NCBI GenBank assembly: GCA_964016885.1
Contig: OZ024765.1
Coordinates: forward strand, 17,794,001-17,858,000
Length of the DNA stretch: 64,000 nt
Direction of reading: 5' to 3'
DNA from: Eledone cirrhosa
Taxonomy: Eukaryota
The translations under genes were made by a program, and so were the position numbers. Shown here piece after piece: positions 57,020-58,980 of the stretch. Under the pieces are notes generated by a model that was not told where the DNA came from, searched no databases, and saw nothing but the letters and a program-made list of their open reading frames with translations. Numbering within the stretch: the stretch's first letter is position 1; each line of letters opens with the position of its first letter.

Positions 57020-57022
<3 letters not shown>

Positions 57023-57307
57023 CCTATAACCGCATTTCGTTATAATAGCATATGGAATTGTCATATTTTCAATTTTGAGATCTTTGGTTAAGAAAGCAAG
57101 TGTAAGATTTCTGAATGCGATTGGGTGACATTTTGAAAGTGTATGGCTGCCTCGCCGCCGCCACCGTGGGGTCACTGCTCCTGCCGTTGTCATTTGTGGT
57201 TGTGTTTGATCTGTGGTGGTGGTGGTTTCTGTTGTACAGTCTCTACATTCTGTAGATGCTGGTATACGGGTTGTTACCCGTTGATGTTGTGATTGCTGCT
57301 GCTGCTG

Positions 57308-57339
<32 letters not shown>

Positions 57340-58980
57340 GGTAGTGTTGTTGTGTTTGATGAAAATGGCCGTGATGGAGATTTGAAGGAAAGGGAGAAGA
57401 AAGATGATGGTGCTTGTTGTTGTTTGTGTTGTGGTTGTGATTATTGTGTTGGTGATGCTGGTGGTGTTGGGTGTTGTGGTGATGGTTGTGGATGTCTTGT
57501 GGATAATGAGGATTGTGTTGTTGTTGTTGTTGTTGTTGATTGTTATTTTTATTATTATTGTTATTATATTTATTATGCTTTTGTTTATTGTGAATATAAT
57601 TAATACTACTACTAATGCTATTATAATTACCATTAGAAGTACTTTTTGTTTTGATATTCTTTCTGTTGCTACTACTACTACTTTTACTTTTACGAGTACT
57701 ACTACCACTAATACGACTACTGCTTTTGCTGCGTGTAGTAGTAGTAGTAGTGGTCTGGATGTTGTTGTAATTTGTAGTTCGTAACAAGTTTCGTCTTTGC
57801 GTCGTTCTTCTGTTAAGAGGGAAATCAGAGTGAGGGCTGTCGTCGCTGCATTGGTTGCTCACGAAACCGTAGGCAGGCTTCACGATCAGATGATGGAGCC
57901 CAATGCTTCGAAAGGAGACGAAACGGGATGTGAGACGACACTGCTGTTCGGGATCACCATTACCATCATCACCGCCGCCGCCTCCGCCGCTACCGATATC
58001 GTTTTCCCAGCGGTGTTTGTCTCGTTTACCATCGCCTGCAACATTAACATCATCATCATCATCATCATCATCACCGTCACCGTCAACATACCCTGGAGAA
58101 CCTCCGTTTTTCTTGTTGCTACTGACGACGCCACCGTCCGAGGCTTGTAAAATGTTACCCCGTTTCCCGCCTTCTCCTCCTCCTCCTCCTCCATCATCAT
58201 ATGCCCCTTCCATTCTCACTGTATAACTTCGACTGCCATCGGCTCTGTTCTCCTTTTCAATTGATCTCACCCCATACTTATTGAAATCTTCATCATCATC
58301 ATCATCGTTATCATCATCATCACCATCATCATCATCATCGTCATCATCATTTTTATTATTATTATTATTATTATTATATCGATGATTAGCCTCGTTCCTG
58401 TTGTTGTTTCCGGAGTCGTTGTAATCCTCATTATCATCATCATCATCATCATCGTCATCGTCGTTATTGGCGGCGGAGGTGATGGCAAAACGTTCACGTC
58501 GCTGTTTAACAGCCGTGGACTGTCTAATGTCCCGACGGTTCCTTTTGCGCGCAGAATGCATGAAACTTTCTCGTGTATTTATGACAATCATAGGGGACCG
58601 TTTTTTTCTGTGAGAGTCTAGATCTCGCATTGTCTTTGATTCGTTCGCCTTTCTACCTTTCGGCAAAATCAGACGTACTTTTTTATTGCACTTTTCACAC
58701 GCCACGTGCAACTTAATCGGTTGCTGTTGCAGTTTCTTCAGCAGGTAAATTGGCAGGTTAATTTTCTGCCAACCTTTCCGTTTTATTCTTAGTCTGACGG
58801 TTGCGAATTCAAAGAAAGTGCCATTCTTATGCTTTTCACAGACATGGAGTATTATTCGTCGTTTTCGTCTTTTGCCTTTTGTCTTCAAGTAGACTTTCAA
58901 CACGGCACTGATTAGAATTTCGTTGGAAAAAGTTGCAGCACCAAGACGGAATTCCATAACGCCGCTTTCTGAGGTGTTAC
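57020..58980 (-). CDS. Terminal coding exon of a divergent TGF-beta superfamily ligand (activin/myostatin/maverick-like prodomain) with large low-complexity inserts
   Basis: Uninterrupted ~650-codon frame. Acceptor tctctttctttctatAG at 58981-58982 (phase 1). Prodomain motifs [22 protein letters not shown]; furin site RKRNRR (58532-58549); knot segments [31 protein letters not shown] and [13 protein letters not shown]...[11 protein letters not shown]. The signal-peptide exon is not seen in the window. Confidence 0.85.

Follow-up and report, generated by a model that had tools for sequence, protein, structure and literature searches.

Within a 64,000-nucleotide stretch of Eledone cirrhosa DNA (the window, to which all plain coordinates refer), we describe a minus-strand gene that is a derived homologue of activin/inhibin-beta precursors, and neither a canonical cystine-knot ligand nor a demonstrated prohormone. 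Its growth-factor domain is interrupted between Cys2 and Cys5 by a 235-residue low-complexity stretch (57131..57835, -) that replaces the wrist helix, is homologous to an insert in Octopus bimaculoides and is predicted to be disordered. Our best explanation, to which we assign a probability of roughly 0.45, is a derived activin/inhibin-like pseudo-ligand, likely secreted and non-signalling, which keeps the insert as a disordered loop and in which the conserved prodomain is the likeliest working part. Full orthologues were found in O. bimaculoides (A0A0L8H3X9, termed P0002) and in an ENA protein termed P0003; with the protein of this gene (P0001), the cephalopod set with a ligand domain comprises three sequences only.

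Gene structure and the interrupted growth-factor domain

The last coding exon (57020..58980, -) is a 652-codon open frame encoding a prodomain arm, an acidic extension and the split growth-factor domain. It ends in a TAA stop (57020-57022, -) and lies in a single minus-strand ORF that spans 57020-59020 from stop to stop. A polypyrimidine tract and AG acceptor of phase 1 (58981..59000, -), recognized in the sequence and covered by a DNA contig, place the exon boundary at 58981/58980. On either side of the exon (55500-56100 and 59050-60500), a single short interspersed repeat is present in many diverged copies of either orientation. Base calls were checked against contigs from three runs of one sample, including run X11, whose contigs cross the exon boundary uninterrupted and are therefore DNA, not RNA. 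The X11 contigs show no differences from the assembly over 57020-57281, 57577-58034 and 58471-59012, pieces that contain Cys1, Cys2, Cys5, Cys6, both basic motifs discussed below and the Cys3 and Cys7 positions, with the repeats in between unbridged; because X11 is possibly the assembly's own sample, this match checks base calls only. Among the RNA data, no run contains the stretch: 10 of the 13 rows listed had shares of 0.04-0.06, X1 gave short repeat matches only, and the listed RNA joints span 20-21 letters per side, within repeats, and we do not interpret them as splicing.

A probable exon 1 was located on the unplaced 91-kb contig C896 (C896:8435-8720; L066:1530-1815, -) as a single-copy match to the first residues of an O. 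vulgaris gene model (CAI9742212.1, termed P0004). It contains a hydrophobic, signal-like stretch, the family motif N-C-T-x-S-x-C and, compatible with exon 2, a phase-1 donor GTGAGT; the resulting junction gives the same residue context as in P0004. The protein is likely to be secreted. Just upstream of the signal-like stretch, two ATGs are out of frame as assembled, across a six-T run; the conflict may be genuine or may stem from a homopolymer error, and a run of this kind would be a typical long-read error site. Exon 1 was not found in 245 kb upstream on C26, the chromosome that carries exon 2. A 200-N scaffold gap at C26:17920802 (in L035), 68 kb upstream of exon 2, is a candidate location for the unplaced contig, one end of which is repetitive. 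Upstream of exon 1 lie about 1.4 kb of A/C-rich triplet repeats that are open in several frames.

The prodomain arm (58532..58978, -) is basic, of activin/inhibin type and carries a CxxC motif. Its model aligns with pro-activin A (5HLZ; Z 12.8, rmsd 2.7, 120 aligned), which is also the best match of the family profile among solved structures (E 4.5e-40). The arm ends in a predicted pro/mature furin site, RKRNRR followed by DI (58532..58549, -), at which cleavage is presumed and which has an equivalent in all three relatives scanned. Between this site and Cys1 lies a low-complexity, D/N/G-rich acidic extension of 197 residues (57941..58531, -), mostly at pLDDT <50, and acidic tracts occur at this place in both orthologues. 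Charge varies sharply along the protein, from a pI of 4.1 for the strongly acidic extension to 10.6 for a piece of the insert, which like the prodomain is strongly basic. A beta-hairpin is confidently predicted at residues 237-256 of P0001, and its motif is common to both Octopus sequences. Compared with O. bimaculoides, 78% of prodomain residues are identical; the two fingers reach 66% and 72%, the aligned insert 47% and the extension 39%. The prodomain is thus more conserved here than the growth-factor domain, which reverses the usual order, growth-factor domains being generally the more conserved part according to the available text of PMC11831175.

The growth-factor domain retains two fingers. 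Finger 1 (57848..57940, -) runs from Cys1 (57938-57940) to Cys2 (57848-57850), and Finger 2 (57023..57130, -) from Cys5 (57128-57130) through Cys6 (57032-57034) to the end of the protein. These four cysteines and the motifs RRTTQRR and RWRRR translate exactly where the preliminary description of this DNA had placed them, with 717 nt between Cys2 and Cys5. Both conserved Trp are Leu (LHHL, 57887-57898, -), and the WxxW type I motif is gone in all three cephalopods. The ring motif is broken (57836..57844, -) by Gly to Asp (57842-57844) and Cys3 to Ser (57836-57838), at bases backed by a DNA contig; the ring Gly is Asp or Glu in 3/3 cephalopods. Tyr occupies the Cys7 position (57026-57028, -), as it does in two of the three cephalopods, and Lys that of the dimer cysteine Cys4 (57131-57133, -), which is absent in all nine subfamily rows. 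Four of the six knot cysteines remain, compared with six in O. bimaculoides and five in P0003. With Cys3 and Cys7 both lost, there is no knot ring for Cys1-Cys5 to thread, and because the knot is incomplete and without its ring motif, including the ring Gly, we file the protein as a derived homologue rather than as a canonical ligand. The position of activin Ser90 holds Thr (57101-57103, -), with Thr in two of the three cephalopods and Lys in P0003. Finger 2 contains two N-x-T sequons (57101-57109 and 57059-57067, -); those of both octopod-type sequences map to activin positions 88 and 102, which we take to be type II receptor contact residues.

AlphaFold2 predicts the fingers with pLDDT >90 around a disordered loop: 72 of 313 residues reach a pLDDT of at least 70, in the finger strands, and the insert is mostly below 50. 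Over its whole length, the modelled core superposes on myostatin, GDF15 and the wrist-less mini TGF-beta2 monomer (5TX2), which are tied at Z 7.3-7.6 (5TX2: Z 7.3, rmsd 3.0, 79 of 92). No Foldseek match to the model reached E 0.001, since the domain is split by the insert. From the model, the two fingers are predicted still to form one fold around the loop, with Cys1-Cys5 and Cys2-Cys6 holding them together. In Pfam the protein scores 15.5 bits against a cut-off of 27, and the gene is absent from the genome scan described below. A Pfam match to HypA (E 0.076) was rejected as an effect of His and CxxC composition.

Activin/inhibin-beta precursors (pro-activin A, 5HLY/5HLZ) share with this gene the fold of the prodomain arm, the CxxC prodomain motif, the furin site and the two-finger core, and have CC at Cys1 in common with its relatives. 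Unlike them, the protein lacks Cys4, the wrist helix, the Trp pair, the ring Gly and Cys3-Cys7, and its predicted mature part, enlarged by two low-complexity tracts, comprises about 500 residues instead of about 115.

Homology of the insert and the gene family

The 717 in-frame nt between Cys2 and Cys5 encode 239 residues, dominated by Q33, N32, T32, H31 and S29. They are free of stops, a result obtained in none of 5000 Markov-1 resamples (mean 9.9 stops), and the periods of all 12 tandem-repeat rows within the frame are multiples of 3; the two rows at or outside the exon ends have periods of 2 and 4. In the two cephalopod orthologues the interval measures 250 and 173 residues, with inserts at the same place. 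It measures 22-39 residues in all six other subfamily rows and 30-37 in the eight complete compact ligand domains aligned from the E. cirrhosa genome; the preliminary description had given a normal length of about 35 residues. Aligned with the O. bimaculoides insert, the insert scores 331, compared with 162+-21 (maximum 227) for shuffles that keep homopolymer runs. The two inserts are thus homologous at the protein level, which indicates that the insert is coding. A CxxC pair within it (57236..57247, -; cysteines at 57245-57247 and 57236-57238) corresponds to two Cys at about the same place in O. bimaculoides. The P0003 insert is no more like the others than chance (65 against 70 for shuffles), so that with this sequence position alone is common.

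The O. vulgaris model P0004 lacks the ligand part. It joins exon 1 and the prodomain correctly but departs from the exon within the acidic tract, so that no ligand domain follows, which may reflect an annotation error, an assembly gap or a prodomain-only isoform. More distant relatives with a very basic prodomain include a chiton protein annotated as "inhibin beta A chain-like" (XP_064614437), which has a compact ligand domain, and three further compact forms; models from Haliotis, Patella and Crassostrea are relatives that end after the prodomain. The best solved relative of the chiton protein is pro-activin A (E 7.9e-19). Like this gene, the chiton protein and the basic-prodomain subfamily have a basic prodomain, no Cys4 and a basic patch before Cys5; unlike it, the chiton protein has a compact 33-residue interval, a full knot and the Trp pair. 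In the tree, the ligand domains of the three cephalopods group together (100/99), and the chiton and molluscan basic-prodomain subfamily joins this clade at modest support (86/84). The prodomain tree leaves 7 of 15 inner branches open, as well as the orthology of the prodomain-only genes to this one, and gives this gene an end branch of 0.049. P0023, P0024 and other low-complexity matches were excluded from all alignments. A search for short C-terminal fragments yielded no further orthologues, the chiton query returned one close relative, and a search of the ESM Atlas returned TGF-beta clusters only, of no further use.

Scanning the genome for PF00019 gave 13 matches excluding this gene, namely eight complete single-exon domains, which were aligned, and five partial exons. 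All eight aligned domains are compact and have Cys3 and Cys7. On the same chromosome, at a distance of 575 kb, a paralogue (L025:1453-2022, -; C26 about 17.278 Mb) has a frame that stops directly behind the prodomain arm; as in the snail and oyster models, furin site and ligand domain are missing. Two other ligands of this genome, L013 and L015, also lack Cys4 (Phe), and in L015 the residue equivalent to activin Ser90 is Pro, described as an antagonist mark in Lefty and Panda in the available text of PMC11239237. Near-identical BMP5-8-like exons on C21 (L009) and the unplaced contig C1589 (L010) are probably a haplotype duplicate.

No description of this gene was found in the literature searched, where one sea-urchin paper matched and most subscription papers fell outside the scope. 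Lophotrochozoan TGF-beta genes were reportedly surveyed in 2014. In the portions available, PMC13275895, PMC13121700 and PMC6953019 name neither the subfamily nor the knuckle residues.

Basic motifs at the ends of the insert

The preliminary description had proposed that convertases might excise the insert like a C-peptide, at basic motifs on either side. RRTTQRR (57791..57811, -) begins 12 residues after Cys2, and RWRRR (57152..57166, -) is a furin consensus 7 residues before Cys5. Under a furin-type rule (P1 Arg, two of P2, P4 and P6 basic, P1' neither Pro nor aliphatic), the interval contains two sites and no more, one 19 residues after Cys2 and the other 9 before Cys5, so that both motifs qualify as candidate cleavage sites in this species. 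Sites within 25 residues of both ends arose in 0.17% of 20,000 shuffles of the interval, in a post hoc test, and at least one site somewhere arose in 39%.

This paired arrangement occurs in one of the three cephalopods. The O. bimaculoides interval holds no site under the rule, its C-terminal KR being followed by Pro and its RPLR ending on Cys5; P0003 has two, both mid-insert (60 and 37 residues before Cys5), and none near Cys2. At RRTTQRR, then, neither orthologue has a usable site, and RWRRR is degraded in both, which contradicts the expectation that orthologues would conserve RR and RxRR sites at the insert ends. RWRRR does have a canonical counterpart in the chiton protein, where an RGRR site followed by Q lies 6 residues before Cys5 without any insert; a minimal RxxR stands 11 residues before Cys5 in one of three other compact relatives scanned, and the wrist of activin A also ends in basic residues in the alignment. 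As read from these sequences, the basic patch before Cys5 is old and its fitness for cleavage is not conserved. The chiton RGRR site hints that nicking of the wrist may be older than our best explanation assumes.

If both cuts were made in E. cirrhosa, the predicted products would comprise 233, 212 and 44 residues. Cuts after RRTTQRR and RWRR might then activate the protein in an insulin-like manner, freeing a 212-residue basic peptide and leaving chains of 25 kDa and 5 kDa joined by Cys1-Cys5 and Cys2-Cys6. The placement of the two sites at the two ends is compatible with such processing, as are the presence of two knot cysteines on each chain, the predicted disorder of the loop, which would make it accessible, and the RGRR and minimal RxxR sites before Cys5 in compact relatives. 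We nevertheless consider it unlikely, since a usable site is missing at either end in both orthologues, although one of them has a homologous insert, and since excision would restore neither the wrist nor the Trp pair, Cys4 or Cys3-Cys7. The basic wrist end of activin A and the frequency of chance sites in shuffles weigh in the same direction. Proinsulin and horseshoe-crab coagulogen likewise have an internal peptide between disulfide-linked chains with flanking basic sites. In these proteins the flanking sites are conserved and excision has been demonstrated, whereas here the sites are found in one species and excision is a prediction from sequence. What stands of the C-peptide comparison is the pairing of sites in E. 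cirrhosa, and what falls is their conservation: insulin-like excision of the insert as a conserved mechanism is unlikely, and cutting at both sites in this species alone is possible. Distinctly unlikely, in our view, is prohormone-style processing inside a former cystine knot, in which convertases would open the growth-factor domain, leave its two chains linked by disulfides and set free a basic, His/Gln-rich peptide of 212 residues, the arrangement having grown from a cleavable wrist that the subfamily already had (chiton RGRR). The alternative offered at the outset, a disordered loop that is retained, agrees better with the orthologue site scan and the predicted disorder.

Likely function and competing readings

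According to the available text of two papers, the wrist and two Trp build the type I site (PMC8718839), and wrist and Trp constitute both type I site and dimer interface (PMC11239237). Under our best explanation, a non-signalling pseudo-ligand with a retained loop, dimerisation and type I binding would have been lost, after which the wrist would have been free to expand by triplet slippage. In pro-complexes, as far as the text of PMC11831175 is available, the prodomain alpha1 helix displaces the wrist, so that a long loop at this place need not block folding. The precursor would be cut at RKRNRR, and the fingers would act as a folding partner of the prodomain. Since the prodomain is the best conserved part and stands alone in related genes, it is the likeliest working part; by analogy and from its conservation, this basic prodomain might bind activin-type ligands or retain them on matrix and thereby dampen their signalling. 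In this species the two basic motifs might be nicked, which would be a side effect confined to the lineage. The protein itself is likely not to signal. The fingers are nearly as conserved as the prodomain, and may for that reason be binding something themselves.

Such binding could make the protein a natural monomeric competitor for the type II receptor, with fingers that occupy type II and recruit no type I receptor, like the engineered mini-monomer TGF-beta. Fold similarity to 5TX2, Thr at the activin Ser90 knuckle position in two of three cephalopods and the conservation of the fingers are consistent with this role, but the N-x-T sequons at activin positions 88 and 102, presumed type II contacts, in both octopod-type sequences and the Lys at the Ser90 position of P0003 are not. 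The design is also alike in that the dimer Cys is removed and the heel helix replaced by a flexible loop in 5TX2, and a TGF-beta without Cys4 and heel helix is a non-signalling antagonist in the available text of bioRxiv 10.64898/2026.03.23.713733. The mini-monomer is, however, an artificial protein with a short loop, an intact knot and TGFBR2 binding by the fingertips; loss of any knot disulfide disabled the engineered monomer (same text), and the knot is incomplete in two of the three cephalopods. We regard competition for the type II receptor as unlikely. Lefty, inhibin alpha, Panda and Myostatin-like C are further divergent proteins in which Cys4 or WxxW is lost, several of them antagonists, and Lefty is without the dimer Cys (available portions of PMC340941 and PMC11239237); as described there, they keep a compact domain, unlike this gene, and the Ser90 position, Thr in this gene, is Pro in Lefty, inhibin alpha and Panda. 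Measured against Lefty and the mini-monomer, the present protein shares the absence of Cys4 and of an intact wrist, and has neither the intact knot nor the Pro at the Ser90 position.

Improbable, too, is an agonist whose non-canonical receptor recognizes nothing but the fingers, in the way that GDF15 and GDNF-family ligands act through Ret and GFRalpha-like co-receptors. Finger strands conserved at 66-72% after loss of the type I elements and the place of GDF15 among the tied top fold matches are in keeping with this idea. GDF15 and GDNF-family ligands are, however, disulfide-linked dimers with full knots, sequence and prodomain fold indicate activin, and a fold match at Z <8 says nothing on function. 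There is a similarly small chance that the gene recently died in this species, as the loss of Cys3 and Cys7, the out-of-frame start codons on the sole assembled copy of exon 1 and the failure to find an RNA run might suggest. Against this, 652 codons remain open through 12 repeat rows whose periods are all divisible by 3, the two lost cysteines would have paired with each other, the gene's end branch in the prodomain tree is short (0.049), and the frame conflict falls within a six-T run, presumably a typical site of long-read error. That the insert is an intron, whose removal would yield a normal-sized domain and refute the initial proposal, is highly improbable: no transcript was seen across the insert and the O. 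vulgaris model leaves the exon early, but none of the 44 frame-keeping GT/GC-AG pairs that would restore an interval of 20-60 residues shows a GTRAG donor or a T-rich tract at the acceptor, the frame is stop-free with protein-level homology to O. bimaculoides, and its repeats are triplet-only.

The gene presents a TGF-beta domain that is kept under sequence constraint despite a wrist of 170-250 low-complexity residues. In this species, the constrained domain is without the Cys3-Cys7 bond that the engineered TGF-beta monomer needs. As the split puts the protein below the Pfam cut-off, ligand inventories can miss such a gene. It belongs to a little-described molluscan subfamily that extends from compact Cys4-less ligands to prodomain-only genes, and this natural series makes it testable whether a TGF-beta prodomain has a function of its own.
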